From Thainema sp. (GTDB lineage Bacteria > Cyanobacteriota > Cyanobacteriia > Phormidesmidales > Phormidesmidaceae): a stretch of DNA of 64,000 nucleotides. The stretch's first letter is position 1, and each line of letters opens with the position of its first letter. Below are positions 2-29,926 of this stretch, piece after piece. The translations under genes and the position numbers were made by a program. The stretch covers positions 31,620 through 95,619 of the forward strand of contig JBQLZK010000021.1 in the NCBI GenBank assembly GCA_052168235.1. The letters run 5' to 3'. The notes under the pieces were generated by a model. It was not told where the DNA came from. It made no database searches and worked only from the letters and a program-made list of their open reading frames with translations.

Positions 2-1366
2 TCTTCCCCCATTAACCCCAGTGGCGTAACGTCTTTAACGACCAATACGCGTGGCTTTCAACCTGCAGGTGACATCTATATTACAGGTGAGCGCTTGCTG
101 GTTTCAGGGGGTGGGGCTTTGTCCTCGATCACATTTGGTGCAGGGGCTGGTGGGCAGGTCACCATTCGCAATCGTGAAACGACTGTAGTAGGAGATAACT
201 TTGGTGGTCTTTACAGCAATATCAGCGGTATCACATTTGGTACTGGCGATGCGGGAAGAGTCGCGTTAGAGACTCAACGATTGCGCATACTCGACGGTGG
301 TGCGATCGCAACTACATCTTGGCTTGTGGGACAGGGAGGCGATCTAGATATCAATGCCACAGAGTCCGTTCTGATCAGTGGGCAGGGCCAAAGTAATAAC
401 AGCAGCATCAATTCAGCCGTCATTCGGCCAGATCGGCTAATTCAGTTGCTCTTTGGCCTGCCTGATGTTCTAACCGCTGATGCTGGCAGCATCAATGTAA
501 CAACGCCAAGCTTATTGATAACGGACGGTGGAACAATCAGCGTTACTAATCGGGGTAGCGGTGATGGAGGGATGCTTGCGATCGCAACTGATCTCCTTTA
601 CCTCGATCGCCAGAGCAGCATTCAAGCTCAGACCACTTCAGGAGAAGGTGGAAACATCAACCTCCAAGCACAAAATGGGCTAATTATACGGAATGGGAGT
701 TTGATTAACGCCACTGCAGGCGGCGCAGGTAATGGCGGCAATATCACTATTGATGCGCCAGTAATTGTAGGACTAGAAAATAGTGACATTATTGCCAATG
801 CTGTTGAAGGTAACGGCGGGAACATCGATATCACAACTCAAGGCATCTTTGGTTTAGAGTTTCGCGACCAACTGACCCCTGAAAATGACATCACGGCTAG
901 CTCTCAGTTTGGGATAAGCGGCACGGTTCAAATCAGCTCCATCGATACTGATCCGAGTTCTGGTGTGATTGAACTGCCTGCCAACGTGGTAGACCCATCA
1001 CAGCAAATCGCCACAGGCTGTGCAGAGACTCAAGGCAGTCAGTTTGTCGCCACTGGACGCGGAGGTGTGCCGCAGAATCCGACCCAGCAGATAAACCGCG
1101 ATCGCACTTGGGAAGATGTCCGCGATCTTTCTGCTTATCGGCAATTAGAGAACGCTGAGCCTCCAGTTTTAACGACTACACCTAATCTCGTTGAAACCAC
1201 AAGCTGGCGTCGGAACGCTAATGGTCAGATTGAGTTGATTGCTGAGCAATCGGCTGTACCGCAATCGGCTTTTGCTACCTGTAGCGGTTCAGAGGTAAGC
1301 GGTTATTCCCCTAGCCACCGCGTAGCAACAGGGACAGCCACCATGACGAGCCAAGCCAGTTGGTGA
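2..1366 (+). CDS. Filamentous haemagglutinin family (TpsA-like) exoprotein, 5'-truncated by the window edge (copy 1)
   Basis: Frame is open from position 2. G/N/T-rich beta-helix repeats (GGNITI-type). C-terminal NSDIIANA..GGNI.ITTQGIFG and C..SQF.ATGRGG.P.NP motifs are shared with copies 2-4. Confidence 0.85.
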   Translation, partial: SSPINPSGVTSLTTNTRGFQPAGDIYITGERLLVSGGGALSSITFGAGAGGQVTIRNRETTVVGDNFGGLYSNISGITFGTGDAGRVALETQRLRILDGGAIATTSWLVGQGGDLDINATESVLISGQGQSNNSSINSAVIRPDRLIQLLFGLPDVLTADAGSINVTTPSLLITDGGTISVTNRGSGDGGMLAIATDLLYLDRQSSIQAQTTSGEGGNINLQAQNGLIIRNGSLINATAGGAGNGGNITIDAPVIVGLENSDIIANAVEGNGGNIDITTQGIFGLEFRDQLTPENDITASSQFGISGTVQISSIDTDPSSGVIELPANVVDPSQQIATGCAETQGSQFVATGRGGVPQNPTQQINRDRTWEDVRDLSAYRQLENAEPPVLTTTPNLVETTSWRRNANGQIELIAEQSAVPQSAFATCSGSEVSGYSPSHRVATGTATMTSQASW

Positions 1367-1530
1367 TTGGGAAGAATAAATCTGATTTTTTATCTAATTC
1401 TCAATGTTTATCACCGTAACTAGCAATTATTCGCCATCCAAGGGAAATATAAATTAAAGTTGCGCCTTACCAGGGTTAGGTTGATGAAAAGATGGATGAG
1501 TTGTTTCGAAAAGATACATATTGAAACGGT
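1367..1530 (+). repeat. Conserved intergenic/leader block repeated between FHA genes (also ~4042-4205 and ~6899-7062)
   Basis: Near-identical sequence TTGGGAAGAATAAATCTGATTTTT..CAAGGGAAATATAAA..GGGTTAGGTTGATGAAAAGATGGATGAGTTGTTTCG at three junctions. Confidence 0.9.
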
Positions 1531-4054
1531 TGCTGGTTTACTAATACCTATTGGATTGGGTTTGGTTTTTGGAACCCCCGCAAACGCTCAAGTAACACCT
1601 GACGGCACTCTATCCACTACCGTTTCTCGCACAGGCAGCAACTTTACCATCAACAACGGCAACCAAGTCGGCAATAATTTATTCCACAGCTTCAGCCAAT
1701 TTTCTGTGCCAACCAATGGAGCAGCTATCTTCAATAATGCTGCCGATGTGCAAACTATTTTTAGTCGAGTAACCGGGGGCAGTGTTTCCAATATTGATGG
1801 CCTCATTCAAACCAATGGCAATGCAAATTTGTTTCTGCTCAATTCAGCCGGAATTCTCTTTGGCCCCAATGCCAGTTTGAATGTCGGGGGCTCTTTCATT
1901 GCCAGCACCGCTGATAGTGTTGTGTTTGAGGATGGAGCACAGTTCAGTACCACAGACGTTGCTGCTGCGCCCTTGCTGACTGTAAATGTGCCAGTAGGGT
2001 TGCAGATGGGAAGCGATCCTGGCTCAATAATCGTGCAGGGCCCGGGCAATCAATTGCTCGATTTAACTGGTTTCGGTACGCCCAGTACTCTCAATACTCC
2101 TGCCGGTCTGCAAGTTGAAGCTAATCGGACACTCGCATTGATTGGTGGTGCCGTAAACTTCTCTGGCGGTGTTATTTCCACCAATGGTGGTGGGCATCTA
2201 GAAATAGGCAGTGTCAGCAATGGATCAGTTCGACTGACAGCTACACCTACGGGATGGGTGGGGGATTACTCTGCAGTGTCGCAGTTTAGCGATGTTCATC
2301 TGGCGCAAGACTCAATACTGAATACTAGCGGCAGTAATAGCTCCATCCAAATCCAAGGGCAAAACGTCAGTTTGACCGAAGGGTCTACTGCTTTGATCCA
2401 AAACTTTGGGCCTCAGTCTACCGGGGGAATTACAGTCAATGCTAGAGGCTCCCTTGACTTGGCGGGGAACACAACCAACGGTCAATTGGGAAGTTTGATC
2501 CAAATTAATAATTTCGGTACAGGCCAGACCGAAGATATTACTATTTCTGCGGCTCAGCTATCTCTCCGAGATGGGGCAAGAGTGCGAACGAACAGTGTTC
2601 AGAGTGCGGGCGGCAACATTACAGCAAATGTAACCGGTACAACCGAGATTAGCGGAATCAACCGCAACAACCCTGCCATTTATACTGCACTCGTAACATT
2701 TTCGCTTGGCAGTGGCAATGCAGGGGACATCAACGTGTCTACGGGTAATCTCAATCTTTTAGATTCTGGACAAATTACTTCTGTCGCTCTTAGTTCTGGA
2801 AACAGTGGCACCATCCAAGTCAATGCAACAGAGCAAATTGACATTGCAGGGTATAACCCTTTGGCATTTTATGAAAGTTCAGTGAGTACCTTTACTCAGG
2901 GGTCTGGTAATGCAAATAATGCAATCATCAACACCTCTAGATTAGTAATTCAGGATGGAGGCTCTCTAGGATCTTCTACCGTAGCCAGTGGTTCAGCCGG
3001 TAGCGTAGAAATTAACGCTTCAGAGTTTATCCACATCCAGGGGCGTGCGACTCAGGGTAATGGTGCCGGAACAATCTCTCGTATTTTTTCAAACGCTGAA
3101 CTTCTTAGCCCAGCCGCTCAAGCTGCTTTTGGGCTACCAGCTATTCCTGCCGGCAATGCAGGGTTCATTACCATCAATACCCCATCGCTACGCATTGCCG
3201 ATGGGGGTGCAGTAAGTGTCAAAAATGATGGTCCAGGGCTTGCAGGGAATGTACAGATTAATGCTGAATCTATGTTTCTGGAGCGTCAAAGCAGCATTAC
3301 TGCAGTAGCTCAGTCAGGAGAAGGGGGAAATCTTGTCTTTGACTTATCTGAGATACTATACCTAACCGATTTAAGCCAACTGAATGCTGAAGCTGGCGGG
3401 ACTGGCAATGGGGGCAATATTACTATTAACGTGCCGTTTATCGTCGGCTTGAACAACAGCGATATCATCGCTAATGCTGTTGAAGGAAATGGTGGCAAAA
3501 TTGACATCACGGCTCAAGGCATCTTTGGCCTAGAGTTTCGGGATGAACTAACGCCTGAAAGTGATATTACGGCTAGTTCTGAGTTCGGTGTCAGCGGTAC
3601 GGTTCAGATTAACTCTATCGATACTGATCCGAGTTCTGGTGTGATTGAACTGCCCGAGAATGTCGCAGACCCATCACAGCAAATTGCAACGGGCTGTGAA
3701 GAAACGCAAGGTAGTCAGTTCATTGCCACTGGACGCGGTGGTGTGCCCCAGAATCCCGCTCAGCAGGTAAACCGCGATCGCACTTGGGAAGATGTCCGCG
3801 ATCTCTCTGCTTACCGACAGTCTAGCAGCCCTGAACCGCCAGCCCCGGCGACCGTATCTAATTTGATTGAAACCACAAGCTGGCGTCGCAATGCTAATGG
3901 TCAGGTTGAACTGGTTGCTGAGCAATCAGCGATGCCGCAATCGGCTTTTGCCACCTGTAGCGGTTCAACGATGAACGGTCGTTTCCCTAGCCACAGCACA
4001 GTAACGGAGACAGCCACAATGACTAGCCAATCAGTTAGTAATTGGGAAGAATAA
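1484..4054 (+). CDS. Filamentous haemagglutinin N-terminal (TPS) domain exoprotein (copy 2)
   Basis: Signal peptide ending ANA-Q; TPS domain (NLFHSFSQF, SRVTGG, LFLLNSAGILFG); beta-helix repeats. ATG at 1484 preferred over TTG at 1460. Confidence 0.88.
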   Translation: MKRWMSCFEKIHIETVAGLLIPIGLGLVFGTPANAQVTPDGTLSTTVSRTGSNFTINNGNQVGNNLFHSFSQFSVPTNGAAIFNNAADVQTIFSRVTGGSVSNIDGLIQTNGNANLFLLNSAGILFGPNASLNVGGSFIASTADSVVFEDGAQFSTTDVAAAPLLTVNVPVGLQMGSDPGSIIVQGPGNQLLDLTGFGTPSTLNTPAGLQVEANRTLALIGGAVNFSGGVISTNGGGHLEIGSVSNGSVRLTATPTGWVGDYSAVSQFSDVHLAQDSILNTSGSNSSIQIQGQNVSLTEGSTALIQNFGPQSTGGITVNARGSLDLAGNTTNGQLGSLIQINNFGTGQTEDITISAAQLSLRDGARVRTNSVQSAGGNITANVTGTTEISGINRNNPAIYTALVTFSLGSGNAGDINVSTGNLNLLDSGQITSVALSSGNSGTIQVNATEQIDIAGYNPLAFYESSVSTFTQGSGNANNAIINTSRLVIQDGGSLGSSTVASGSAGSVEINASEFIHIQGRATQGNGAGTISRIFSNAELLSPAAQAAFGLPAIPAGNAGFITINTPSLRIADGGAVSVKNDGPGLAGNVQINAESMFLERQSSITAVAQSGEGGNLVFDLSEILYLTDLSQLNAEAGGTGNGGNITINVPFIVGLNNSDIIANAVEGNGGKIDITAQGIFGLEFRDELTPESDITASSEFGVSGTVQINSIDTDPSSGVIELPENVADPSQQIATGCEETQGSQFIATGRGGVPQNPAQQVNRDRTWEDVRDLSAYRQSSSPEPPAPATVSNLIETTSWRRNANGQVELVAEQSAMPQSAFATCSGSTMNGRFPSHSTVTETATMTSQSVSNWEE

Positions 4055-4157
4055 ATCTGATTTTTATCTAATTCTCAATGTTTATCACCGTAATTAGCAA
4101 TTATCCGTCATTCAAGGGAAATATAAAACACAGTTGTGTCTCACTAGGGTTAGGTTG

Positions 4158-6911
4158 ATGAAAAGATGGATGAGTTGTTTCGGCAAGACACATGTTGGGA
4201 CAGTTGCGGGGTTATTGATACCTGTTGGACTGAATTTAATTTGGGGAGTTTCTGCAAACGCTCAAGTAACCTCTGATGGCACTTTATCCACAACCGTTTC
4301 TCGCACAGGCAGCAACTTTACCATCAACAACGGCAGTCGAGTCGGCAATAATTTATTCCACAGCTTCAGCCAATTTTCTGTGCCCACCAATGGAGCAGCT
4401 ATCTTCAATAATGCTGCCGATGTACAAACCATTTTCAGCCGAGTAACCGGGGGCAGTGCTTCAAATATTGATGGCCTCATTCAAACCAATGGCAGTGCAA
4501 ATTTATTTCTGCTCAATTCAGCGGGCATTCTCTTTGGTCCCAATGCCCGTTTAGATATTAGCGGTTCGTTTGTTGCTAGTACCGCAAGTAGTGTCTTATT
4601 TGGCGATGGTGTTCAGTGGAGCACGACCAATACAGCCACGCCTCCATTGTTAACCGTTAGTGTTCCGGTAGGATTACAACTGGGGCCGAATGCAGGATCA
4701 ATTCAAGTCGAAGGGCCACCAGTACTAAATTCGTTTATTCCTCGTCCTCCAACTCTGACTGTCCCATCAGGAGAAACCTTGGCCTTAGTTACTGGACAAA
4801 TCGATATTGATAACGCAACCCTAACGGCTCCAGATGGGCAAATCGAACTGTGGGCTGTACAAGATGCTGAGGTGACGTTTAACAGTAGTCTCCGTAATTG
4901 GCGCTTGGTGAGTGAGATGGATCTAGCGAACTGGGGTACAGTTTCGCTACGACAAGCTTCGTTGGTGAATGCAAGTGGAACCGATGGTGGGGCCATCAAC
5001 ATCCGGGGATTAGGACTGACTGTGCAAGATGGATCAAACATTAGTTCGAATACCTTAGCGGGTCAAGGGAGAGGTATTACCGTTCAAACGACAGACTTTG
5101 TTGACCTGCTAGGAGCGTCACAGCCAAATCAGTTTTTCCCTGGTATTGGAACGTCTGTTGGAAGCATATTTGAGCCTCTAGCCATCGGGCGTGCAGGCAA
5201 CGTAACCGTCGAGACCGAGAACTTGCGATTGCGTAATGGAGCAGGACTTTTTTCCTCTTCGTCTGGTAACAATTCTCGAACAGGGGATATTGTTGTTCGA
5301 GCTTCAAACATTGAGGTTATCGGCTTCCAGCCCTTTTTATTGCAACCAACCTCCATTACTACTACGCTCTTTAGCGGTACCAACAATGAAAGTGGCAATA
5401 TTACTATTGAGTCTGATCGCATCCGTGTGCAAGATGGAGGACTGATCAGTACGTCTTTGCTGGCTTTTAGCCCTCTATTTCCTACGGTTGGAAGATCGGG
5501 TGATATTTCGATCCGAGCAACCGAAAGCTTCGAAATTGCGGGTTCGACACCTTTCAATGTGCTATCTGGGGTATCTACAGGCATTCAACCCTTTGCAGAA
5601 GGGCAGGCTGGAAACATCACAATTAATGCTGGACGGCTACAAATCTCTGATGGCGGATCTATTCGGAGTAGCTTAGCAGGAACAGGGCAAGCCGGAAGCA
5701 TTTCTATTCGAGCAACGGAGATAGCCGTTAGTGAACCGAAACTTGATGGCACCAGCAATTTACCCGGTGGCATTACCGTTGCTGTAGGAAGTAATGCAGT
5801 CGGCCCAGGTGGCAGTATCAATCTAACGGCTGATCGGCTATATGTCTTTGATGGTGGCCAGATTACATCTTCCAGCTTAGGACAAGGAACCGCCGGAAGC
5901 GTCAGCCTCCGGGTCAGAGATATTGATGTGCGAGGCATTTCCCCGTCTCAAATAAATGGCCAGTTCCTACCCAGTGAAATCACAGCCTCTTCGACAGGTG
6001 CCTTTGAGGCAGGCTCAGTCAATATCAGAGCCGATCGCTTACAGGTGCGTGACGGTGCTAAAGTAACCGTGAGCAATTTGGGGACTGGTGATGCCGGGAA
6101 CCTCAACGTTTGGGCTCGCAACGTCTTCTTGGATAACGGTGGCAGTCTACAAGCTGAAGTTAACGGCGGTGGGCAAGGAAATATTCGACTTCACATTGAT
6201 GACTTACTCGTGCTGCGAAACGGCAGCAACATCACCACCAATGCTCAAGGTGCGTCCACCGGAGGCAACATCTCTATCGATGCTGGATTTGTAATAGCGG
6301 TAGCCGATGAAAACAGTGACATCATCGCCAATGCTATTGAAGGCAATGGCGGTAACATCGACATCACCACTCAAGGTATCTTTGGCCTAGAGTTTCGGGA
6401 TGAACTAACGCCTGAAAGTGATATTACGGCTAGTTCCCAGTTCGGCGTCAGCGGCACGGTTCAGATCACCACCATCAACACCGACCCTAGTTCTGGCGTG
6501 ATTGAACTACCTGCTAACGTGACAGACCCGTCACAGCAAATTGCTACAGGCTGTGCAGAAACGCAAGGCAGTCAGTTCATTGCCACTGGACGCGGCGGCG
6601 TACCCCAGAATCCTACCCAGCAGGTCAACCGCGATCGCACTTGGGAGGATGTGCGTGACTTATCAGCATATCGACAGTCAGAGAACGCTGAGTCTCCAGC
6701 CCTGACGACCACATCTAATTTGGTTGAAACCACAAGTTGGCGTCGCAATGCTAATGGTCAGGTTGAGCTGATTGCTGAGCAATCGGCTATGCCGCAGTCG
6801 GCTTTTGCCACCTGTAGCGGTTCGGCAATGAACAGTCGTTCTCCCAACCACAGCACAGTGATTGAGGCAGCAGCCATAACGAGCCAAGCCGTTGGTGATT
6901 GGGAAGAATAA
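4158..6911 (+). CDS. Filamentous haemagglutinin N-terminal (TPS) domain exoprotein (copy 3)
   Basis: Same architecture as copy 2. ATG at 4158 (alternative TTG at 4134). Confidence 0.88.
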   Translation: MKRWMSCFGKTHVGTVAGLLIPVGLNLIWGVSANAQVTSDGTLSTTVSRTGSNFTINNGSRVGNNLFHSFSQFSVPTNGAAIFNNAADVQTIFSRVTGGSASNIDGLIQTNGSANLFLLNSAGILFGPNARLDISGSFVASTASSVLFGDGVQWSTTNTATPPLLTVSVPVGLQLGPNAGSIQVEGPPVLNSFIPRPPTLTVPSGETLALVTGQIDIDNATLTAPDGQIELWAVQDAEVTFNSSLRNWRLVSEMDLANWGTVSLRQASLVNASGTDGGAINIRGLGLTVQDGSNISSNTLAGQGRGITVQTTDFVDLLGASQPNQFFPGIGTSVGSIFEPLAIGRAGNVTVETENLRLRNGAGLFSSSSGNNSRTGDIVVRASNIEVIGFQPFLLQPTSITTTLFSGTNNESGNITIESDRIRVQDGGLISTSLLAFSPLFPTVGRSGDISIRATESFEIAGSTPFNVLSGVSTGIQPFAEGQAGNITINAGRLQISDGGSIRSSLAGTGQAGSISIRATEIAVSEPKLDGTSNLPGGITVAVGSNAVGPGGSINLTADRLYVFDGGQITSSSLGQGTAGSVSLRVRDIDVRGISPSQINGQFLPSEITASSTGAFEAGSVNIRADRLQVRDGAKVTVSNLGTGDAGNLNVWARNVFLDNGGSLQAEVNGGGQGNIRLHIDDLLVLRNGSNITTNAQGASTGGNISIDAGFVIAVADENSDIIANAIEGNGGNIDITTQGIFGLEFRDELTPESDITASSQFGVSGTVQITTINTDPSSGVIELPANVTDPSQQIATGCAETQGSQFIATGRGGVPQNPTQQVNRDRTWEDVRDLSAYRQSENAESPALTTTSNLVETTSWRRNANGQVELIAEQSAMPQSAFATCSGSAMNSRSPNHSTVIEAAAITSQAVGDWEE

Positions 6912-7015
6912 ATCCGATTTTTATCTAATTTTCAATGTTTTGTCACCGCAATTAGCAATTATTCGCTATTCAAGGGAAATATAAAACACAGTTGTGTCTC
7001 ACCAGGGTTAGATTG

Positions 7016-9814: not shown

Positions 9815-10080
9815 ATGAACTGGTGATTTGAATTCTCTTTGGTTTTTCCATTTTCCATTTTAAAGATGAACAGTTTTATTACTGAAGATGGTAATTATTC
9901 GTTAATGAGGGGAAATCTAGATCAAGAAATTGATCCTGGAGGCAAATCGATGGAGTGGTGGTTCAGTGATTGCCCAAAGAGACAAACAAATTGGCAATGT
10001 TTAAAGCCTAATTACATAACTGACCAGTAATCTGTAGCCGATTAACGTGGCTAACTGTCAAACTACCTGCATAAACTCCT

Positions 10081-12663
10081 ATGATTTTGCGTTTTAAGCG
10101 ATCGCCGCTCTTTTATCTAATCCTTAGTATTTTAAGCCTGAGTCTGTCCCTTGCTCTGCCAACAGCGCGAGTACTCTCGGCAACACCCACGACTGCATCA
10201 TTTAGTATTTCAGCGGTTAGCAATTTATCTGCCAACTCATCCCAATCTTTACTAGAACAAGGCCGTAGCCTTTATCGAGCCGGGCAATTTGGAGACGCAA
10301 TTACTATCTGGCAGCAGGCCATTCAGCAGTATCAGAGTCAAGGCGATTCACTCAATCAGGCACTCGGCCTCAGCTATCTCTCGCTAGCTTATCAGGAGCT
10401 TTATCAGTGGGATGCAGCTCAACAGTCAATTGAGCAAAGCTTGGATCTGTTGCAAGCGGCTCAATCAACAGCAGATGCCATTTTGTGGGCACAGGCACTC
10501 AATACCCAAGCGAGCCTGCAGCTCAACACCGGCCAAGCCGAATTGGCGTTGGAAACCTGGCAGCAAGCGCAAACCTATTACGAACAAGCAGGGGATACCA
10601 GCGGTAGCTTAGGTAGCCAAATCAACCAGGCACAGGCATTACAGAGCTTGGGCTTCTATCGCCGCTCAAAACAGCAACTCGAATCGCTGGCTCAGCAACT
10701 AGAGGCAATGCCTGATGCAGATATGAAAGTTAGCGGATTGCGATCGCTAGGTTTATCTCTACAAATGATTGGCGATACAGTCGGCAGTCAGCAGGCATTG
10801 GAACAGAGTTTAGCGATCGCACAAGACATTGGTGCAACGGCGCAACTGAGCTCCATCTGGTTGAATTTGGGCAAAACGTCTGCTGACTTAGGCGATCCCG
10901 ACAGCGCGCTGTATTGCTTTGATCAGGCCGAGCAGGTCGCCGTGAATCCAGGAGAACAGTTACAGGCTCGATTGGATCGATTCAAGCTGTTTCTGGACTA
11001 TGACCTGCTGGATTTAGCGACACCGGAGGCCGCCACGATCCTTCAGCAGCTTCAGGCACTGCCACCGAATCATCTATCGCTCTATGCGGCGATCAACTTT
11101 ACCGCTGCGATTAACCAGATCGAAAATCCGGCTCAAGTTCTGCCGCTGAGCAATTTGTCGCAGTTGATGGCTACGACTATTCAATCGGCCCAGCAGAGCC
11201 AGGATGCTCAAGCAGAAGCCTATGCGCTGTACCAGTTAGGCCAACTTTATAAGCGGACTGAGCAGTGGGCAGACGCAAGACAGGTGACGCAGAAATCTCT
11301 CGATGTGGCTCGTCAGCTTCGAGCAGACCACATTATTTCTCAGTCAGCTTGGAGCTTGGGCCAAGTGTATCGCCAAGAAGGAAAGCGGACGGAAGCTATT
11401 AGCGCTTATACAGAAGCCGTCAATGCTTTAAAGGCTTTACGAACTGATTTAGCGTCCATTAATTCCGACGTTCAGTTTTCATTTCAGGAAAGTGTCGAGC
11501 CAGTCTATCGAGAACTAGTTGATTTGCTGCTTGATGGTCAGCCCAGTCAAACAGCTTTGTTAGAAGCCCGTGAATTGATTGAATCGCTTCAGGTGGCAGA
11601 ACTAGATGATTTCTTCCACGAAGCCTGTTTAGATGAAACCGAGCGGGTTGAGATTGACCAAGTTGATCCGGCAGCAACCGTCATTTATCCGATTATTCTG
11701 CCAGATCGCTTAGCCGTCATCCTTTCTGCGGCTGGAAAACCGCTGCACTACTATGAAACACCTGTGTCACAGGTAGAAATTGAGCAAACGTTAGACACGT
11801 TGCTAATTGGCCTCAATCCAGTTTCAGATGCCAAAGAACGCGATCGCGCTTCTCAGCAAGTATACAACTGGTTAATTCAACCGGCGGAAGCAGAGCAAAT
11901 TTTGACCGATACAAAAACATTGGTGTTTGTGTTAGATGGCCGCCTGCGTAATATTCCAATGGCGGCTCTATATGATGGCCAGAACTATTTGATTGAAAAA
12001 TATGCTGTTGCCCTTTCGCCAGGTTTACAGCTAATGGCTGCTCAGTCCCTCCAACCGAATCAAATTGACGCGATTGTGGGTGGTATTAGTCAATCCCATG
12101 AAGGCTTTAGTGCCTTACCTGCTGTTGAATCCGAAGTGCAAGAAATTTCAGAGATGGTGCCAGCTTCAGTTTTAATGAATCACGAATTTACTAGCGCTGC
12201 TCTGGCGAATCGCTTTAGAAATACAAATGCTAATGTGATTCACTTAGCGACTCATGGACAGTTTAGTTCTCGGCAAGAAGAAACCTTTCTCTTAACTTGG
12301 GATGGTCGAGTCAGCATTAAAGAACTATCGGAACTTCTAGAGAATCGCGGTAGTAAAGCCTCACAGCCGATTGAATTATTGGTTCTTAGTGCCTGTGATA
12401 CTGCTACTGGCGATGATCGGGCCGTACTTGGCTTAGCTGGCTTAGCGGTCAAATCAGGCGCTCGCTCAACGGTGGCTGCGCTTTGGCCTGTAAAGGATCG
12501 AGCTGCTGCTCAACTGATGACTCGTTTTTATGATCAGCTGCAACAGCAAGGTATGACGAAAGCTGAAGCACTACGTCAAGCTCAAATGTATCTCATTCAG
12601 CAAACTGACTTTAAAGATCCTTTCTTTTGGTCTGCCTTTGTTTTAGTGGGTAACTGGTTATAG
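10081..12663 (+). CDS. TPR-repeat CHAT domain protein (caspase/HetF-like clan CD protease) with N-terminal signal peptide
   Basis: Hydrophobic N-terminus and TPR-like helices. CHAT motifs VIHLATHGQF and LVLSACDTATGD give an intact His/Cys dyad. Ends PFFWSAFVLVGNWL. Confidence 0.92.
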   Translation: MILRFKRSPLFYLILSILSLSLSLALPTARVLSATPTTASFSISAVSNLSANSSQSLLEQGRSLYRAGQFGDAITIWQQAIQQYQSQGDSLNQALGLSYLSLAYQELYQWDAAQQSIEQSLDLLQAAQSTADAILWAQALNTQASLQLNTGQAELALETWQQAQTYYEQAGDTSGSLGSQINQAQALQSLGFYRRSKQQLESLAQQLEAMPDADMKVSGLRSLGLSLQMIGDTVGSQQALEQSLAIAQDIGATAQLSSIWLNLGKTSADLGDPDSALYCFDQAEQVAVNPGEQLQARLDRFKLFLDYDLLDLATPEAATILQQLQALPPNHLSLYAAINFTAAINQIENPAQVLPLSNLSQLMATTIQSAQQSQDAQAEAYALYQLGQLYKRTEQWADARQVTQKSLDVARQLRADHIISQSAWSLGQVYRQEGKRTEAISAYTEAVNALKALRTDLASINSDVQFSFQESVEPVYRELVDLLLDGQPSQTALLEARELIESLQVAELDDFFHEACLDETERVEIDQVDPAATVIYPIILPDRLAVILSAAGKPLHYYETPVSQVEIEQTLDTLLIGLNPVSDAKERDRASQQVYNWLIQPAEAEQILTDTKTLVFVLDGRLRNIPMAALYDGQNYLIEKYAVALSPGLQLMAAQSLQPNQIDAIVGGISQSHEGFSALPAVESEVQEISEMVPASVLMNHEFTSAALANRFRNTNANVIHLATHGQFSSRQEETFLLTWDGRVSIKELSELLENRGSKASQPIELLVLSACDTATGDDRAVLGLAGLAVKSGARSTVAALWPVKDRAAAQLMTRFYDQLQQQGMTKAEALRQAQMYLIQQTDFKDPFFWSAFVLVGNWL

Positions 12664-13118
12664 CATACAAAAGCCACAATGCAAGTTTAGATTCCTAATC
12701 AAATAGGAGCGATGAATCCGTGCTGAAATAGTTGCGATCGCAACAGGGACAAATTTGCCTAAACTCGATCAATAAATTTAGTTGATCAAGTTTAGATTGG
12801 ACAAATTCCTGTTTACTTAAAAAACATTGTTGTCGTTCGTTGATTTAGATCTCGTAAAAATACTCAGATTTGCGTAGTTTCTCTATGGTTCCGATGTGCG
12901 TAGTTGTCTATGTTACAAGTGTGTTCTCTGTTAATGATGTATCCGACAGCAAATCGTTGTTCTTAATCACTAATTTCAACCAATTTTGATTAGGAAATAA
13001 TGAGGAACTACCTGTTCGGAAAGGTTTTAGCGTGATGGATGTAGAGCCATTTTTATCATCTGCTCTATTTGTAATCGCTAGAGTTTTGTCCACATTAACC
13101 TTATCCAGGTATCACGTC

Positions 13119-14105
13119 ATGAAACGTCAACATCTGGCGAGTATGTTGAGCATTGTTGCTCTAATCGCGGGTGGTGTTTGTACCAGTGCTCAAGCTGTGA
13201 CATTTACACCCCCGACCACCAATCGGGCTCCAAGTCAAGCGACTGGCGGAGCATCGCGCGGGAGTTTCTTTATCCCTCCAGCTGACCAGGGTGCTCCGAA
13301 TCAAGCCACGGGTGGAGCCTCTCGTGGAGGCTTGTTTGTGCCTGCTGATGGTCAGCGGGCTCCTCGACAGGCAATGGGCGGAGCGTCACGCGGTGGTCTA
13401 TTTACACCTGCCGATGGCCAACGGGCTCCCCAGCATGCGGCTGGTGGAGCATCGCGCGGCGATCTGTTCACGCCTGCTGATAGTCAGCGGGCTCCCCAAC
13501 AGGCTGCTGGTGGGGCATCGCGTGTCGGCACCTACTATTTGAATCCATCAATGGTAGGGGCAGACGGCCCAGCCGCGATGATTGCGCTGACGCCTCAAAG
13601 CTACTACGGCACGACGGTGTCTGAGCGTCCCATGTTTCTGGTGTATCTGCCTGCATCCAATGCGGCGGAAGCCGTTTTTAGTCTGAAGGACGCAGCGGGC
13701 AATCTGCAATACCAGATGACGGTTCCGGTTGCCGGAGCTGTTGGTGTTGTGCCAATTCAATTGCCAGAAGATGCACCTGCCCTAGAAATTGGGGAAGACT
13801 ATCAGTGGTTAGTTGCACTCAAGGTCGATGGGCAGTTGGGGCCAAGCACGCCCTATGTCGATGGCTGGATTCAGCGGATTCAACCAAATGACGAGCTGGC
13901 AACGGCTCTGCAAGAGGGAGATGCCCTAGAACAGGCAACGGCTCTGGGTCAAGACGGTGTGTGGTATGACTGCGTGGCAATTCTTGCTTCGCTTTATGCC
14001 ACAGAGGCAGCGGATACGACCTTAACCCATCAGTGGGCAGAACTACTGTCCTCAGTTGGATTAGAAGCAATTGAAACAGCTCCCGTTTTAGCTTCTGTTC
14101 AATAG
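13119..14105 (+). CDS. DUF928 domain protein with signal peptide and five N-terminal GGASRG repeats
   Basis: GGASRG motifs, GTTVSERP.F.VY.P, Y.W..A, GWIQR and G.WYD motifs typical of DUF928. ATG at 13119 gives a good signal peptide (AQA-V). Confidence 0.85.
   Translation: MKRQHLASMLSIVALIAGGVCTSAQAVTFTPPTTNRAPSQATGGASRGSFFIPPADQGAPNQATGGASRGGLFVPADGQRAPRQAMGGASRGGLFTPADGQRAPQHAAGGASRGDLFTPADSQRAPQQAAGGASRVGTYYLNPSMVGADGPAAMIALTPQSYYGTTVSERPMFLVYLPASNAAEAVFSLKDAAGNLQYQMTVPVAGAVGVVPIQLPEDAPALEIGEDYQWLVALKVDGQLGPSTPYVDGWIQRIQPNDELATALQEGDALEQATALGQDGVWYDCVAILASLYATEAADTTLTHQWAELLSSVGLEAIETAPVLASVQ
13203..13523 (+). repeat. Five tandem ~66-bp (22-aa) coding repeats F.P.....AP.QA.GGASRG
   Basis: Read directly from the translation and the DNA. 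Confidence 0.92.
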
Positions 14106-14116
14106 ATTGGCTTACT

Positions 14117-14213
14117 CACATCTTGCACCTTGCATTTTAAGAAACCGAACAGGTTATTTTGCCGTCGCATCACGGCGGCAAAATAACCCTTCTGGGTTCT
14201 GGTGCAAGATGTG
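14117..14213. repeat. Nested inverted-repeat element (MITE-like or terminator)
   Basis: Outer IR CACATCTTGCACC (14117-14129) / GGTGCAAGATGTG (14201-14213); inner stem at 14152-14188. Confidence 0.7.
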
Positions 14214-14322
14214 CGCTCAGTAATGTCTAACGTCCAGTAGAAGTTGGTGAGTTATCCTTGCCAACTTCTTGGCCTAGCCCAACCCATATTCAATCAGCTC
14301 GCGATCGCTGTCTAGCAAAATT

Positions 14323-17148
14323 ATGTGGCGCAAGTTTCAGACTCTTCTTCAACGAACTCGTAGCGTACTGGTGATTACGCCCAGTGTGGCTTTGACTGTC
14401 ATTGTGGGTCAGTCATTTGGGTTGTTTAACCTACCGGAATGGAAGATCCGCGACGAGTGGGTGCGGTTGCGATCGCAAAATGTCGTAGCCGACGAGATTG
14501 TCATTGTCACAATTGATGAGCAGGATATTCAATCGGTCGGTAACTGGCCGGTTCCAGACTGGGCACTGGCGCAGCTACTGGAACAGATTCGGGCGCAAGA
14601 ACCGCGCAGCATCGGCCTGGATCTGTATCGCGATTTGCCGGAGGGCAGTGGCCACGAGCAGTTAGTTGAGATCTTTCAAACAACGCCTAATTTAATTGGA
14701 GTTGAGAAAATTACCGGGGAACGAGTTCCAGCGCCGCCCGCACTAAAAGAGCTCGACCAAGTGGGACTGGCAGATTTGGTGCTAGACAGCGATCGCAACG
14801 TGCGCCGCGCCCTGCTCACGGCTGGCGATGAGCAAGAGGACAACATCATCAAAGCTGGATTGGCTACCCGCGTTGCTCTCCAGTACCTGGAAGCCGAAAG
14901 TATCAGTTTAGAAAGCATTGATCCAGAGCAGCAGAAGTTTCAGTTGGGTCAACAAACTTATGTACCACTCAGCCGACAGGAAGCGGGCTACTCGAATGGG
15001 GATTTGGGCGGCTATCAGATTTTGCTGAACTGGCATGGCTCAGAAACTGCTTTCCAAACGGTTACCATGCGCGATGTGCTAGCAGGCAACGTGCCGTCGG
15101 ATTTAATGCGCGATCGCATGGTTTTTATTGGCTCGACCGCTTCGAGTACAAACGACTTTTTTGGCACTCCCTTTAGTTCCTCTTGGCTATTTGCCCAACG
15201 TCCAACACCTGGTGTCGTTGTTCATGCCAATATTGCCTACCAGCTCGTTCGCGGCGCACAGACGGGAACAGCGAATCTACGCGGCTTTTCCCGTGTCCCC
15301 TTTGCTGGCTGGATTTTACTCTGGTCTACTGTGGGGTCAGTTGGTAGCTGGTGGCTCTCAAGCGTGCAAGCGGGTAAATGGATTCCGGGCGGCAAAATCT
15401 TCTGGGCCAGCGTGGGCATTAATGGAGCACTACTGGTGGGCGGTTACGCCGGATTCTTGGGCGGTATTTTGATTCCCGTTAGTCCTGCATTGGTCGCATT
15501 GACTAGCAGCGTGATTGCCACGACAAACGCTCGCAAACAGCAAAAGCTAGAAGAAACCAACCAACAGCTCGAAATTGCTAACGCTCAGCTTCTGGACTAT
15601 TCCAAAACGCTGGAAGCCAAAGTAGAAGAGCGCACACACGAGCTAGTTCAAGCCAAACAAGCCGCTGATGCCGCCAACCAAGCCAAGAGCGAGTTCCTGG
15701 CCAATATGAGTCATGAGCTGCGCACGCCGCTCAACGGCATTTTGGGCTACGCCCAAATTCTAGAGCGCTCGCCAGCGCTCCGTCAGCAAGATCAAAAAGG
15801 GGTAGGCATTATCTATCAATGCGGCACCCACCTCCTGACGCTGATTAATGACATTCTGGATTTGTCAAAAATCGAAGCTCGCAAACTGGATTTATCACCC
15901 ACAAAGATTCATTTGCTGACGTTTTTGCATGGAGTGGCTGAAATCTGTCGCATTCGGGCCGAGCAAAAAGGTGTGTTCTTCAATATGGCCATGAACGATC
16001 GCCTACCGATGACGATTCAGGCCGATGAAAAGCGGCTGCGACAGGTTTTGATTAATCTGCTGGGAAACGCTATCAAGTTTACGGACAACGGCAAAGTCAC
16101 ATTCAAAATTGATGTCCTGCCCCAGGCTGCTCCGCCGCAAGACGAAGATGAACAGCAGGCCAATCAGCTTACCATCACGCTGCGCTTTCAAGTTGAAGAC
16201 ACTGGCATTGGCATGTCTGCCGATCAGATCGAAAAAATCTTTTTACCGTTTGAGCAGGTTGGTGAAGCTAGTCATCGCCCCGACGGTACTGGCTTGGGGC
16301 TAGCGATTAGCCAAAAAATCATCGCGCTGATGAGTAGTCAAATTCAGGTACAGAGCCGCTTAGGAGAAGGCAGCGTCTTCTGGTTTGACCTCAGTGTTCC
16401 AGTGTCCCGTGACTGGCAGGCCACAGAGCAGAACCCGACCCAACCCGTAATTGTAGGAATTCAAGGTCAATCCCCCAAAATCCTAATTATTGATGACGAT
16501 GCCAATCATCGTTCAATTTTGACGAAGCTGCTGCAGGACATCGGTTGTCAAACCCTTGCCGCCACAGACGGTGGTGAAGGATTAGCACAAGCTATGCAAC
16601 ATCAGCCCGATCTGATTGTGCTGGATTTGGCCATGCCTAATATGGATGGATTTGAGCTGATGATGAAGTTGCAGGCTAATTCAGACACTCAAGCCATTCC
16701 AATTATCGTGTCTAGTGCCAGCGTGTTTGAAGCAGACCGCGATCGCAGTTTGCAAGCTGGGGCACATACATTTCTGCCCAAACCGTTTCAAACCGATGAA
16801 CTACTCAATGCCATCAGCTCACTGCTGAATGTGGACTGGATCTATGCCGAAGTAATGCCACTGTCAACCTCTTTAATTCCTGATCCGCTGCCAGTACAGT
16901 CGTCTGCTCATCAACATAATCATCAACAGGATGAATGGGTCTTGCCTTCAGATGACGTTCTACAGCAGCTCTACCACCTGGCCATGATGGGCGACATTCC
17001 AGCGATTGAGCAGATTTTAGTGGACTTAACTCAACATTCACAGTTCGCTCCCTTTGTCGCTGAGTTACACAAGCTGGCCACTAACTTTCAAACTAAAAAA
17101 ATTCGCCAATTCCTCAAAGCTTTTGTCAAAACGGAGTCGCATCAGTAA
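14323..17148 (+). CDS. CHASE2-domain hybrid sensor histidine kinase (CHASE2-TM-HisKA-HATPase-REC)
   Basis: [24 protein letters not shown] and PGV.VHA (CHASE2); TM helices; [39 protein letters not shown] with DLAMP. Confidence 0.93.
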
Positions 17149-18539
17149 TGATTTCACATTCTTTCTCCCAGTCAACTTCCACGCTGAGTCAGGCTGCTCA
17201 ATGTGATGGATCACCGAATAGCTTAGTCACTGATGCCATACCGACTTCTGTGCATATTCTGCTGGTTGATGATAATCCAACCAATCTGAAAGTGCTGTCG
17301 GAAGCCATTCAAGGCTATGGTTGGAAAGCGTTAATGGCAACGGATGGTGAATCTGCGATTGAACAGGCTGAATATGCTAGTCCTGATTTGATTTTGCTGG
17401 ATGTGATGATGCCTGGTTTGAACGGGTTCGAAACCTGCCGCAGGCTAAAAGATAATCCCCTGACTCAAAATATTCCGATCATTTTTATGACCGCTTTATC
17501 GGATGCAAGAGATAAAGTGAAAGGGTTAGAAATGGGCGCGGTCGATTATGTAACTAAGCCATTTCAACAAGAAGAAGTCGTTGCTCGGTTGAAGCTGCAT
17601 CTGAAGCTATCTCATTTAACCCGCACACTTGAGCAACAGGTGCAAGAGCGTACCGCCAAATTAGCCCAATCCTTACAGCAATTACAGCAGGCGCAACTAA
17701 AGCTGGTACAAAGCGAAAAAATGTCTGCTTTAGGTAATTTGGTTGCGGGTGTCGCCCATGAAATCAATAATCCCGTAGGCTTTTTATCGGGCAATTTACA
17801 GCCAGCACAGGATTATGTCAGCGACCTAATGCGGCTAATTGATCTATATCAGCAAACCTATCCTGAACCCACACCTGAAATTCAGGATGAGCTAGAGGAT
17901 GTGGATCTGGACTATTTACGGGATGATTTGCCTAAGCTTCTACAGTCGATGCGAGTGGGAATTGAGCGTATCCACGGCATCAGCAACAGCCTTCGGACGT
18001 TCTCCCGTGCAGATAAGGACTACAAAGTTCCGTTTGATGTTCATGAAGGATTAGATAGTACGCTGCTAATCCTGAAGCATCGCCTGAAAGCCAATGATAA
18101 TCGGCCCGATATTGAGGTGGTTAAACACTATGGTGACTTGCCTAAAATTGACTGCTTTCCTGGCCAATTAAATCAGGTCTTTATGAATATCCTGGCCAAT
18201 GCAATTGATGCACTAGAAGAATCTAATGCTGAACGCAGCTTTGCCGACATTAAAGCCAATCCTAATCAAATTACTATCAGTACCCAATTAACGGACGATC
18301 AGCAGGCCGTTGTCATTCAGCTTCAAGATAACGGCATTGGCATCAGTGAGGAGGTCAAGCAGAAAATTTTTGATCACCTGTTTACGACTAAAGATGTGGG
18401 GAAGGGAACTGGACTGGGTTTAGCCATCTCTCAACAAATCGTTGTTGAACAGCACAACGGTTCGCTAGACGTCAAAGCGTCCCCAAATCAAGGCTCTGAA
18501 TTCACGATCACCTTGCCTGTTAAGGCTCTCAACTCTTAG
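17148..18539 (+). CDS. Response regulator-histidine kinase hybrid (REC-HisKA-HATPase)
   Basis: ILLVDD..LLDVMMP..KPF; GVAHEINNP; QVFMNILANAIDA; GTGLGL. TAATG stop/start overlap with the upstream kinase. Confidence 0.92.
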   Translation: MISHSFSQSTSTLSQAAQCDGSPNSLVTDAIPTSVHILLVDDNPTNLKVLSEAIQGYGWKALMATDGESAIEQAEYASPDLILLDVMMPGLNGFETCRRLKDNPLTQNIPIIFMTALSDARDKVKGLEMGAVDYVTKPFQQEEVVARLKLHLKLSHLTRTLEQQVQERTAKLAQSLQQLQQAQLKLVQSEKMSALGNLVAGVAHEINNPVGFLSGNLQPAQDYVSDLMRLIDLYQQTYPEPTPEIQDELEDVDLDYLRDDLPKLLQSMRVGIERIHGISNSLRTFSRADKDYKVPFDVHEGLDSTLLILKHRLKANDNRPDIEVVKHYGDLPKIDCFPGQLNQVFMNILANAIDALEESNAERSFADIKANPNQITISTQLTDDQQAVVIQLQDNGIGISEEVKQKIFDHLFTTKDVGKGTGLGLAISQQIVVEQHNGSLDVKASPNQGSEFTITLPVKALNS

Positions 18540-18859: not shown

Positions 18860-19999
18860 TTACGGCAAAGTCTGTGCTGCTGCATCTCGACTCGGCAATT
18901 GGAAGTAAAACGATGTGCCCGCATCAACCTCAGAAGCAACCCAAATATCTCCGCCATGACTGTCGACAATTTTCTTGCAGGTTGCCAATCCAATGCCGCT
19001 ACCGGGATACTTTTCAGTCGGGTGAAGGCGTTGAAAACCCTTGAAGATGTCCTGTAGATGTTCAGATGGAATACCGATGCCGTTGTCATGAACCGCGAAG
19101 CGCCAGTAGGTTTTGTCGTGGGGAGAAGCCGCGATCGCAATTTGGGGAATCACCTGAGCGTGAACAAACTTAATGGCGTTACTAATTAAATTTTGAAATA
19201 ACTGAACTAACTGCGTCTCGTTGCCGTAAATAGCCGGGAGGTCAGAACACTGCAAAACTGCGCCGCTTTCTCTCAAAGCAATATCGAGATTGCTGAGCGC
19301 TTGCGCTAACACAGCATTACCGTCTAACCAGGCAAACGCTTGTTCTTCATGCCCAAGTTGAGCGTAATCCAGCAGATTTTGAATTAATCGCTGCATGCGA
19401 TCGCAGGCGTTAACAATGTTGTTTAAGTACTCCTGGGCTGGAGTTTGAGCCAACTCTGGGAACTGAAGGGTGATGATTTTGGTGTAGCCTGTAATGCTTT
19501 GTAAAGGTTGCTGTAGGTCGTGGGACACGATATGAGCAAACTGCTCCAGCTCTTGATTAGAGCGGGCTAGCTCTTCATTCTGAGCCGTTAGCTGCCGCTG
19601 GAGTTCCTGCAGGCGGAGCTGATTTTCGACCCGGACGAGCACTTCAGCTTCTTGAAAAGGTTTAGTAATGTAGTCCGCTCCGCCGACAGAAAAGGCGTGC
19701 ACTTTGTCTAATGCATCATCCAGGGCACTGATAAAGATAATCGGAACAGCTTGCGTGTCTGGATCTTGTTTGAGCCGCAGGCAAACTTCATAACCATCCA
19801 TCTCCGGCATTTTGATATCCAGCAGAATCAAATCAGGCGCATCTGCTTTCACTGAAGCAAGAGCTTGAGCGCTATTCAAGGCTTTACGCACCTCGTAATT
19901 GTGCTGTGTCAGTATGGCCGACAACAACCGCAAATTATCTGGTGTATCATCGACAACTAGGATTTCTTTTTTAGACGGATTTGCTGGAAGATATGGCAT
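18860..19999 (-). CDS. Response regulator-histidine kinase (REC-HisKA-HATPase, Cph1-like kinase module)
   Basis: ILVVDD..LLDIKMP; FAHIVSHDLQQPL; LFQNLISNAIKF; GSGIGLA. Alternative TTG start at 20011. Confidence 0.9.
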   Translation of the reverse strand: MPYLPANPSKKEILVVDDTPDNLRLLSAILTQHNYEVRKALNSAQALASVKADAPDLILLDIKMPEMDGYEVCLRLKQDPDTQAVPIIFISALDDALDKVHAFSVGGADYITKPFQEAEVLVRVENQLRLQELQRQLTAQNEELARSNQELEQFAHIVSHDLQQPLQSITGYTKIITLQFPELAQTPAQEYLNNIVNACDRMQRLIQNLLDYAQLGHEEQAFAWLDGNAVLAQALSNLDIALRESGAVLQCSDLPAIYGNETQLVQLFQNLISNAIKFVHAQVIPQIAIAASPHDKTYWRFAVHDNGIGIPSEHLQDIFKGFQRLHPTEKYPGSGIGLATCKKIVDSHGGDIWVASEVDAGTSFYFQLPSRDAAAQTLP

Positions 20000-20028
20000 A
20001 AAGTAAATCAAGCGCGTAGTGCAATTGT

Positions 20029-29882: not shown

Positions 29883-29926
29883 GTATCTAGAACCGCTACA
29901 TAAAAGAGTTGTAAGAAATAAACCAA

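Follow-up and report, generated by a model that had tools for sequence, protein, structure and literature searches.

The stretch of Thainema sp. DNA analysed here, referred to as the window, comprises 64,000 nucleotides, and its positions 2-18539 hold a co-oriented run of genes for four TpsA-like exoproteins, a TPR-CHAT putative exported protease, a DUF928 protein, a CHASE2 hybrid histidine kinase and a REC-HisKA-HATPase kinase (Table 1). The run of at least four TpsA-like genes proposed in the initial annotation was confirmed and extended, as the array on the contig comprises five genes (C21:27516-41433), of which four lie in the window and the fifth upstream of it. TpsA no. 2 starts upstream of the window at C21:30433 and carries its TPS domain at C21:30547-31314; its in-window frame (2-1366) gave no Pfam match and was matched by a custom HMM of the conserved TpsA C-terminal module. 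The three complete TpsA genes in the window match both TIGR01901 and PF05860 (E 1e-62 to 1e-64). TpsA no. 3, whose translation more likely begins at an ATG eight codons inside the listed frame, is built of a signal peptide, the TPS domain, a beta-helix middle that is variable and the conserved C-terminal module, and the TpsA signal peptides end with ANA/SAQ.

Table 1. Genes and features of the locus (window coordinates).
Feature	Position	Strand	Basis
TpsA no. 2, C-terminal 454 residues	2..1366	+	open frame running off window start
TpsA no. 3, 864 aa as listed	1460..4054	+	PF05860 E 2.6e-62; TIGR01901; alignment
TpsA no. 4, 925 aa	4134..6911	+	PF05860 E 8.8e-63; alignment
TpsA no. 5, 940 aa	6992..9814	+	PF05860 E 1.1e-64; alignment
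TPR-CHAT putative exported protease, 860 aa	10081..12663	+	PF12770 E 5.5e-64 and TPR families
CHAT domain	11845-12654
CHAT dyad His725	12253-12255
CHAT dyad Cys772	12394-12396
DUF928 protein, 328 aa from ATG	13119..14105	+	PF06051 E 1.1e-50; repeats; structure model
DUF928 signal peptide	13119-13196
Five tandem ~22-residue units with GGASR	about 13197-13535
DUF928 domain	13509-14087		172 bits (Pfam cut-off 26)
CHASE2 hybrid histidine kinase, 941 aa	14323..17148	+	Pfam; structure model pLDDT 90.9
Predicted periplasmic CHASE2 domain	14389-15339		PF05226 E 1.5e-60, residues 23-339
TAATG stop/start overlap	17146-17150
REC-HisKA-HATPase kinase, 463 aa	17148..18539	+	Pfam; sequence at 17141-17155

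In the TPR-CHAT protein, a signal-like segment at the N-terminus is followed by TPR repeats and the CHAT domain, and the catalytic His and Cys are invariant in all 23 aligned TPR-CHAT proteins, in line with the initial description of a signal-peptide CHAT protein with an intact dyad. Residue 59 is the first from which the orthologues can be aligned. With a rough criterion that we devised (K/R and then a hydrophobic stretch), a signal-like N-terminus is assigned to 20 of 23 TPR-CHAT and 67 of 73 DUF928 proteins, and the remainder are mostly apparent wrong choices of the start codon. Likewise, the DUF928 frame is listed from 13032, and the ATG given in Table 1 is the likely start, which yields a classical signal peptide ending with AQA. 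This protein, too, turned out as first described, a repeat protein with a signal peptide; it has five tandem motifs containing Arg. An Arg motif directly after the signal peptide is found in 64 of 73 DUF928 proteins and is immediately followed by Cys in 57 of the 73. Six proteins with five to seven copies of the motif lack this Cys, and all of them are encoded in operons with CHAT and a hybrid kinase; as the six form one clade, their link to CHAT counts as a single evolutionary event.

The CHASE2 kinase gene follows the DUF928 gene after 218 bp. The order of its domains is a TM helix, the CHASE2 domain, three TM helices, HisKA, HATPase and REC, and in the structure model helices comprising residues 2-31 and 324-348 lie on either side of an alpha/beta domain. 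An Hpt domain was not detected in the 102-residue tail with Pfam at E values up to 1; more distant relatives (L019, L023) possess one. The translational coupling suggested for the REC-kinase is reflected by the overlap of its start with the stop codon of the CHASE2 kinase gene, and the REC-kinase is kept downstream of the CHASE2 kinase at six related loci (L010, L011, L065, L028, L035, L038). The initial annotation further proposed that CHAT, DUF928 and the CHASE2 domain meet in the periplasm. The export signals of the first two and the position of CHASE2 between TM helices are in place, and such a meeting is therefore plausible.

A TpsB partner of the ShlB/FhaC type, which was to be sought upstream, is missing from the contig: a profile search with PF03865 (ShlB family) revealed no such gene here, and the three TpsB genes of the genome are located on other contigs (C54, C4, C50). 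The orthologous locus L028 contains one TpsB gene beside the operon. NsrA, an outer-membrane protein to which we return below, bears a possible likeness to TpsB.

The five TpsA paralogues are 29-45% identical in their middles versus 82-92% in their C-terminal ~200 residues. Recent gene conversion was considered as an explanation for the conserved ends and rejected, since the DNA identity in this region (0.74-0.92) is not above the protein identity. The C-terminal module occurs in 10 of the 15 TPS proteins of the genome regardless of their location and is thus no marker of this pathway; Pfam returned nothing useful for it and NCBIfam holds no name. A likeness between its TGRGG.P motif and the DUF928 motif was dropped, as the motif is too short to be tested.

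The strong divergence of the middles would fit inter-cell conflict or kin recognition, where CHAT or the variable TpsA proteins hit neighbouring cells, DUF928 serves as a protective periplasmic inhibitor and CHASE2 reports the attack. In addition, predicted conflict systems often contain domains of the CHAT-like and caspase-like kinds (PMC8195603), and the genome contains 34 CHAT matches. However, the C-termini of the TpsA proteins are conserved and not polymorphic, so that the array lacks the CdiA-like pattern of a variable C-terminal toxin with an immunity gene, and immunity genes would not fit into the spacers of 79-100 nt that separate the TpsA genes. Moreover, PADLOC yielded weak, partial single-domain matches only, and DUF928 tracks CHASE2 rather than CHAT, as detailed below. 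We regard a role in conflict as very improbable.

Five of the eight DUF928 genes in this genome adjoin one of its 18 CHASE2 genes. Of the 49 DUF928 genes in five complete genomes, 33 have a CHASE2 domain at a distance of no more than 2 kb, whereas random placement (2000 runs) gave a mean of 0.59 pairs and a maximum of 5. The families concerned are large (34 CHAT, 18 CHASE2, 15 TPS and 8 DUF928 matches in this genome), which might bring such genes together by chance; yet the excess of pairs over random placement, along with the orthology of the block across genera, refutes this explanation, and its probability is negligible. The recurrence of the neighbourhood in cyanobacteria, stated in the initial annotation and recommended there for statistical analysis, is therefore far above chance. 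A locus search with a single protein retrieved only two close relatives; the five-gene block is orthologous at five sampled loci (L010, L011, L065, L028, L035; 56-78% identity), and it is found in at least five other genera.

Conversely, 32 of the 66 CHASE2 genes in the complete genomes are paired with DUF928, and the unpaired genes (16 of 49 for DUF928, 34 of 66 for CHASE2) count against a module built on this pair. A sample of 60 DUF928 loci, taken from 24 genera, includes 40 with a CHASE2 gene within 1.5 kb, in 35 of these on the same strand, as compared to 14 of the 60 with CHAT. At 29 of the 40 paired loci no CHAT gene lies within 3 kb; hence, the core pair can do without CHAT, and cleavage by CHAT is not the general mode of action of DUF928 and CHASE2. 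The 38 paired CHASE2 proteins comprise 14 cyclases, 9 hybrid kinases, 9 proteins with an N-terminal CHAT-like domain, 2 GGDEF and 2 GGDEF-EAL proteins, 1 protein kinase and 1 protein without an output domain. Thus, the constant core of the module is the DUF928-CHASE2 pair, which is combined with six kinds of cytoplasmic output.

The two families also mirror each other in their phylogeny. The DUF928 clades track the output class of the partner, requiring 20 changes on the tree as opposed to 39.6 after shuffling, with none of 200 shuffles as low. The distance matrices of DUF928 and CHASE2 correlate with a Mantel r of 0.65 (null maximum 0.18), and 17 of the 38 pairs share their nearest neighbour between the two families, where 1.0 is expected; linked genes are, however, co-inherited, so that mirrored trees arise even without physical contact. 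We consider that DUF928 probably binds CHASE2.

The remaining genes of the locus behave differently, as TPR-CHAT and TpsA are additions mainly of one DUF928 clade. In the clade that holds the window, a TPR-CHAT gene is present in 16 of 18 rows and a TpsA gene in 12 of 18, whereas at the other sampled loci each is found in 7 of 45. This enrichment speaks against the view that the TpsA array is an adhesin locus that by chance stands next to a CHAT-DUF928-CHASE2 signalling operon of three to four genes, and so do the fusion of TPS with TPR-CHAT and the recurrence of the order TpsA-CHAT-DUF928-CHASE2 at a paralogous locus elsewhere in this genome (C18), in Pantanalinema and in three further genomes (G029, G002, G008). 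On the other hand, a TPS gene lies within 10 kb at only 16 of the 60 sampled DUF928 loci, the last TpsA gene is separated from the TPR-CHAT gene by 267 bp, and the C-terminal TpsA module is generic. We judge unrelated neighbours to be a rather improbable explanation.

Alternatively, CHAT could be the protease for maturation or release of the TpsA proteins, with DUF928-CHASE2 as a separate sensor that regulates the secretion genes or is merely co-regulated. The trimming of Bordetella FhaB by a dedicated protease provides a precedent. Consistently, TpsA-TpsB-TPR-CHAT trios devoid of DUF928 and CHASE2 recur (the C50 locus and L054), two TPS-TPR-CHAT fusions with frames of 1891 and 1717 aa are encoded in this genome, and there is a TpsA-response regulator-CHASE2 operon with neither CHAT nor DUF928 (C45). 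Against this view, TPR-CHAT is located directly upstream of DUF928-CHASE2 in the 16 clade rows, of which four (L024, L041, L048, L065) lack a TpsA gene within the fetched DNA, and the TpsA proteins have no known cleavage site. This alternative appears unlikely to us. At the C25 locus of the same genome, a caspase-CHASE2 gene is adjoined by a DUF928 gene and a TPS-TPR-CHAT fusion.

Several described systems resemble parts of the locus. DUF928 itself is a family of 7881 clusters at 50% identity that is named in a single paper, as judged by full-text search, and for which NCBIfam has no name; in a profile search of 1.84 billion proteins, the best 150 matches listed were all strong. The structure model combines an Ig-like sandwich with a helical domain (pLDDT >90 at residues 150-322), and its best structural match is MtxA (PDB 4Z29), a periplasmic protein of magnetotactic bacteria. 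A search of all PDB sequences with the DUF928 profile did not retrieve 4Z29 at E values up to 10. [quoted passage not shown] MtxA and DUF928 thus share the signal peptide, the Ig-like and helical domains and the position of the gene directly before that of a CHASE2 receptor (PMC4439547). The mtx cluster of magnetotactic bacteria likewise includes a Sel1/TPR-type protein (PMC5088516). In contrast to DUF928, MtxA has an extra N-terminal domain, apparently lacks the Arg motif and shows no similarity at the sequence level; moreover, the output in the mtx cluster is an adenylate/guanylate cyclase instead of a kinase, and neither a CHAT protease nor TpsA has been reported there.

A dedicated exported protein next to a CHASE2 kinase is also known from betaproteobacteria, where, in the excerpt available, the kinases adjoin an exported LysM-FecR protein, as in the BiofilmReg operon encoding a response regulator, LysM-FecR and a CHASE2 histidine kinase (PMC5192318). 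As depicted there, this operon differs from the present locus in that it contains LysM-FecR in place of DUF928 and a response regulator, which has no counterpart here, while protease and TpsA genes do not form part of it. In Sinorhizobium meliloti, the accounts at hand state that the CHASE2 cyclases (CyaK, CyaD1, CyaD2) react to a peptidic signal and depend on NsrA, a beta-barrel protein of the outer membrane (PMC7529298, PMC13001267), which argues for an input via the envelope and not for a free small ligand. The signal in that pathway is, however, a foreign basic protein (uL2), and the same partial accounts report no DUF928, CHAT or TpsA.

Caspase-like proteins have been connected to CHASE2 before. 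In the EACC2-caspase-CHASE2 systems (ECF sigma, DUF1822), CHASE2 provides a caspase-like protein with its extracytoplasmic sensor (Kaur et al. 2021, in the parts available), and 9 of the 38 CHASE2 proteins paired with DUF928 belong to this type. As far as these parts go, the caspase-like domain is fused to CHASE2 on the cytoplasmic side, as opposed to the separate exported protease and the kinase output found here, and DUF928 and TpsA receive no mention (Kaur et al. 2021).

Taken together, these data are compatible with the locus being a copy of an envelope signalling module conserved in cyanobacteria, in which CHAT and the filaments feed a DUF928-CHASE2 core, a reading to which we give about an even chance. 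DUF928 would be the Sec-exported periplasmic partner of the CHASE2 domain, acting as co-sensor or regulator, and CHASE2 would drive the cytoplasmic output fused to it, which in this case is a hybrid kinase that may pass its phosphate on to the overlapping REC-kinase. TPR-CHAT, a caspase-like protein of clan CD, and the TpsA filaments with their variable middles and constant ends would represent further inputs to this core in the clade of the present locus. Most likely, the signal would arise from an event at the surface filament or the filament's C-terminal end and pass to the TPR-CHAT protease, which may act on the N-terminal Arg motifs of DUF928; the altered engagement of DUF928 with CHASE2 would in turn switch the kinase. 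That CHAT cleaves anything at all along this route is a tentative proposition, somewhat doubtful in our view. No description of the module or of its mechanism came up in our literature searches, in agreement with the initial annotation.

The removal of a small periplasmic protein that binds a sensor kinase by a periplasmic protease is an established way to switch signalling, as in CpxP-DegP-CpxA and ExoR-ExoS/ChvI; these systems differ from the present one in that they belong to unrelated families and comprise neither a clan CD protease nor a secreted filament. A more specific version of the module follows Craspase, the type III-E CRISPR gRAMP with TPR-CHAT/Csx29. Its published descriptions, to the extent available, give the order TPR then CHAT, as observed here, and a protease that is activated by a bound partner and introduces one cut into the dedicated substrate Csx30, thereby eliciting a downstream response; a similar logic is proposed for the present locus. 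By analogy, the state of the filament might activate CHAT, which might cut after the Arg of the GGASR units, and the freed peptides or the trimmed DUF928 might represent the CHASE2 ligand, with the five to seven tandem units resembling a multi-copy propeptide. Craspase is cytoplasmic and RNA-guided, whereas the TPR-CHAT protein described here carries an export signal and its gene has no Cas family among its neighbours, which are TpsA, DUF928 and kinase genes. Furthermore, Craspase is not known to cut after Arg, and the P1 preference of CHAT proteases is not fixed, which weighs against the module as proposed. Extracytoplasmic signalling of the Craspase type is a possibility to which we assign a low probability.

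The CHASE2 domain was reportedly defined by Zhulin et al. in 2003. Its input is still called unknown in one study (PMC5192318). About half of the CHASE2 receptors in five complete cyanobacterial genomes (32/66) come with a dedicated candidate periplasmic protein. As DUF928 shares the modelled fold and the gene context of MtxA, a protein from an unrelated phylum, DUF928/MtxA-type proteins are testable candidates for the input or the co-receptor of CHASE2. Moreover, the locus places exported caspase-like CHAT proteases, as well as the numerous TpsA proteins of cyanobacteria, in a first functional context.

The domains named in the initial annotation were all detected at the locus, which lies on contig C21 of the 7.54 Mb Thainema sp. 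assembly (the window being C21:31620-95619), and the stop codon of the CHASE2 kinase gene overlaps the start of the REC-kinase gene in the sequence TAATG. On the contig, the TpsA genes form an array of five tandem genes (C21:27516-41433), upstream of which chlorophyll genes (NifH-like, DUF5331 and nitrogenase-component-like) are located. Convergent to the module, a second signalling operon (window 18860-32555, minus strand) encodes a REC-kinase, a CBS-PAS-GAF-kinase, a REC-PAS-GAF-kinase-REC protein (1394 aa), a HisKA-EAL protein and an unusual REC-Trans_reg_C-Hpt-REC protein of 665 residues; it is not retained next to the module in orthologous loci. A 568-residue open frame at window 44686-46392 (plus strand) has no Pfam match at E values up to 1e-5.

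Genes of the module, DUF928-CHASE2 pairs and CHAT paralogues in the genome of Thainema sp. (positions refer to the window unless a contig, C, is named)
Feature	Location	Strand	Remarks
TpsA tail (further gene)	2-1366	+	open frame
TpsA, TPS secretion domain	1460-4054	+	Pfam
TpsA, TPS secretion domain	4134-6911	+	Pfam
TpsA, TPS secretion domain	6992-9814	+	Pfam
TPR + CHAT	10081-12663	+	Pfam
DUF928	13032-14105	+	Pfam; likely start ATG 13119; signal peptide ends AQA
CHASE2-HisKA-HATPase-REC	14323-17148	+	Pfam
REC-HisKA-HATPase	17148-18539	+	Pfam
DUF928-CHASE2 pair	window		output hybrid kinase
DUF928-CHASE2 pair	C18		output GGDEF; order TpsA, TPR-CHAT, DUF928, CHASE2 as in window
DUF928-CHASE2 pair	C46		output GGDEF-EAL; short CHAT protein next
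DUF928-CHASE2 pair	C22		output protein kinase
DUF928-CHASE2 pair	C25		output N-terminal CHAT-like; beside DUF1822 and 1890-residue TPS-TPR-CHAT fusion
Strong CHAT matches	C33, starts 792, 6410, 10740, 16761, 19437, 22475, 29726	+

Of 121 sampled genomes of the phylum, 39 contain DUF928 (PF06051); excluding the Thainema genome (G000), it is present in 38 of 45 genomes of the Thainema class and in 0 of 75 outside it. From 150 listed matches out of 227 for DUF928, the best-scoring loci were drawn (up to three per genome, one genome from each of 24 genera), and the resulting 60 loci, comprising about 9.6 kb on each side, were scanned with HMMs made from the domains of the Thainema genome itself. 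CHASE2 was found within 1.5 kb of DUF928 in 40 loci, 35 of them with both on the same strand, and 21 of the 24 genomes contain at least one pair. A strong CHAT match within 3 kb was observed in 14 of the 60 loci, TPS within 10 kb in 16 and ShlB within 10 kb in 6. This sample is biased to high-scoring DUF928 genes; the unbiased count, comprising all hits in five complete genomes, placed a CHASE2 domain within 2 kb of 33 of 49 DUF928 genes and a DUF928 gene within 2 kb of 32 of 66 CHASE2 genes, whereas random placement yielded 0.59 pairs on average and at most 5 (2000 trials). The neighbourhood, which the initial annotation gave as recurrent in cyanobacteria, recurs there far beyond chance. The outputs of 38 paired CHASE2 proteins are diverse (14 cyclase, 9 hybrid-kinase, 9 N-terminal CHAT-like, 2 GGDEF, 2 GGDEF-EAL, 1 protein-kinase and 1 without output domain). 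Tandem DUF928 gene pairs occur as well, and some proteins of 474-543 residues contain two DUF928 domains (loci L013, L017, L034, L052 and L055; proteins P0001-P0004).

The Thainema genome itself yielded matches to 8 DUF928, 18 CHASE2, 34 CHAT and 15 TPS domains, and five of the eight DUF928 genes are immediate neighbours of CHASE2 genes whose outputs all differ. The C25 locus (L003, G000:C25:44000-63999) further encodes an 801-aa CHAT-like-CHASE2 fusion and a protein of 301 residues that weakly matches a sigma factor. The gene for a 518-aa NF038122-family metalloprotease directly precedes the paralogous C18 operon (L004:15492-17048, minus strand). TpsA, TpsB, TPR-CHAT and Peptidase_C14-DUF4384 genes follow in a row without DUF928 on C50 (L009, G000:C50:38000-57957, at 4380-14549), so that a complete two-partner secretion pair is accompanied by two distinct caspase-type proteins. 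The C45 locus (L072, G000:C45:17000-33000, at 5841-12406, minus strand) combines a 1187-aa TpsA with a response regulator of the REC-GerE type and a CHASE2 protein of 637 residues without recognised output domain, a TpsA-CHASE2 link lacking DUF928 and CHAT. Moreover, C33:792-50000 holds an array of CHAT paralogues, with at least seven strong matches within 31 kb and three weak ones.

On the DUF928-domain tree, the partner output class changes 20 times versus 39.6 times upon shuffling, and none of 200 shuffles was as low. Distances within DUF928 and within the CHASE2 partners are correlated (r 0.65; null maximum 0.18), and for 17 of 38 pairs the nearest relative is identical in both families, with 1.0 expected. 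The DUF928-CHASE2 pair is a stable partnership that is inherited as a unit; since linked genes mirror each other without contact, this co-inheritance proves partnership, not binding. All ten kinase-partnered DUF928 proteins fall into a single clade (18 rows, support 87), where the cluster includes a TPR-CHAT gene in 16 and a TpsA gene in 12 cases, as compared with 7 each in the other 45 sampled loci. The block of CHAT, DUF928, CHASE2 kinase and REC kinase is whole in the nearest relatives of the window (L010 and L011 from Pantanalinema, L065, L028 and L035; 56-78% identity), with TpsA beside it in all of these loci except L065 and TpsB in L028.

Identity among the five TpsA paralogues is about 89% in the TPS domain and 82-92% in the C-terminal ~200 residues, but only 29-45% in the middle. 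Recent gene conversion could homogenise the ends; however, their DNA identity (0.74-0.92) is not above the protein identity, which rules this out and indicates that the ends are kept by selection. The C-terminal module was matched by an HMM in ten frames of the genome, all of them TPS proteins and one adjoining a TpsB gene; it belongs to these TpsA proteins in general. This conserved C-terminus, together with the short intergenic spacers (79-100 nt), speaks against a reading of the array as CdiA-type toxins. The TpsB/ShlB partner that was to be sought upstream of the window was not found there on the contig; the three ShlB-family genes of the genome are all on contigs other than C21.

DUF928 proteins usually carry one copy of a GG[AG][ST]RG-type motif after the signal peptide (64 of 73 proteins), followed by a Cys (57 of 73), and a second, nearly invariant Cys inside the domain. 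The window protein contains five tandem ~22-residue units that each include GGASR, and both Cys are absent from it as well as from the five further proteins that have 5-7 units. Together, these proteins make up a single clade of six, pointing to one evolutionary event. Two or three motif copies were found in other clades. In the AlphaFold model (73-sequence alignment) the repeats are disordered, and residues 150-322 (pLDDT above 90) form a sandwich of eight strands and, after it, four helices. The best structural match of this model is MtxA. According to PMC4439547, this protein of magnetotactic bacteria has a signal peptide, its gene directly precedes one for a CHASE2 cyclase, and its deletion is described as causing no phenotype.

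The high-confidence CHASE2 model (pLDDT 90.9, pTM 0.89) shows an alpha/beta domain between long helices; a wide search of the PDB, dominated by the helices, gave no clear match. The intact His/Cys dyad of CHAT noted initially is borne out by His725 and Cys772, invariant in all 23 aligned TPR-CHAT proteins (alignment A4: the 20 CHAT proteins encoded close to DUF928 in the sampled loci, the window protein and two paralogues from its genome). By eye, all 20 have a basic-then-hydrophobic N-terminus, and 20 of the 23 pass a crude rule of our own for signal-like N-termini. The orthologues can be aligned only from residue 59 on, which fits a cleaved export signal.

Taken together, the exported DUF928 protein and the extracytoplasmic CHASE2 sensor domain are a conserved, co-inherited pair, to which one clade has added secreted filaments and an exported protease whose catalytic residues are intact; TPS-TPR-CHAT fusions link this protease with the secretion pathway. 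As a co-sensor or regulator, DUF928 probably binds CHASE2, the protease might act on the exposed Arg motifs of DUF928 or on TpsA, the filaments would supply surface input, and the hybrid kinase would signal to the overlapping REC-kinase. However, 29 of 40 DUF928-CHASE2 pairs lack a CHAT gene in their vicinity and this locus has no TpsB gene, which argues against the full chain.

In the open-access literature searched, DUF928 is named only in PMC5587647, which mentions that CHASE2 and DUF928 are clustered in Nostoc punctiforme and that a DUF928 protein of Synechocystis responds to acid stress. Kaur et al. (PMC8195603) predicted caspase-CHASE2 fusions with a sigma factor and DUF1822; the available portion of that article mentions neither DUF928 nor TpsA. 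In line with the initial annotation, which knew of no described mechanism, no account of the cyanobacterial DUF928/CHAT/CHASE2/TPS module was found in this literature. Betaproteobacterial CHASE2 kinases have a LysM-FecR partner protein (PMC5192318), Sinorhizobium meliloti senses a peptidic signal through NsrA and CHASE2 cyclases (PMC7529298, PMC13001267), and the TPR-CHAT protein of Craspase is described as a partner-activated, single-substrate signalling protease. These parallels favour a CHASE2 input in the form of a protein over a free small ligand, and the module would be of a known kind, namely sensors that have an accessory protein in the periplasm and may be under proteolytic control.
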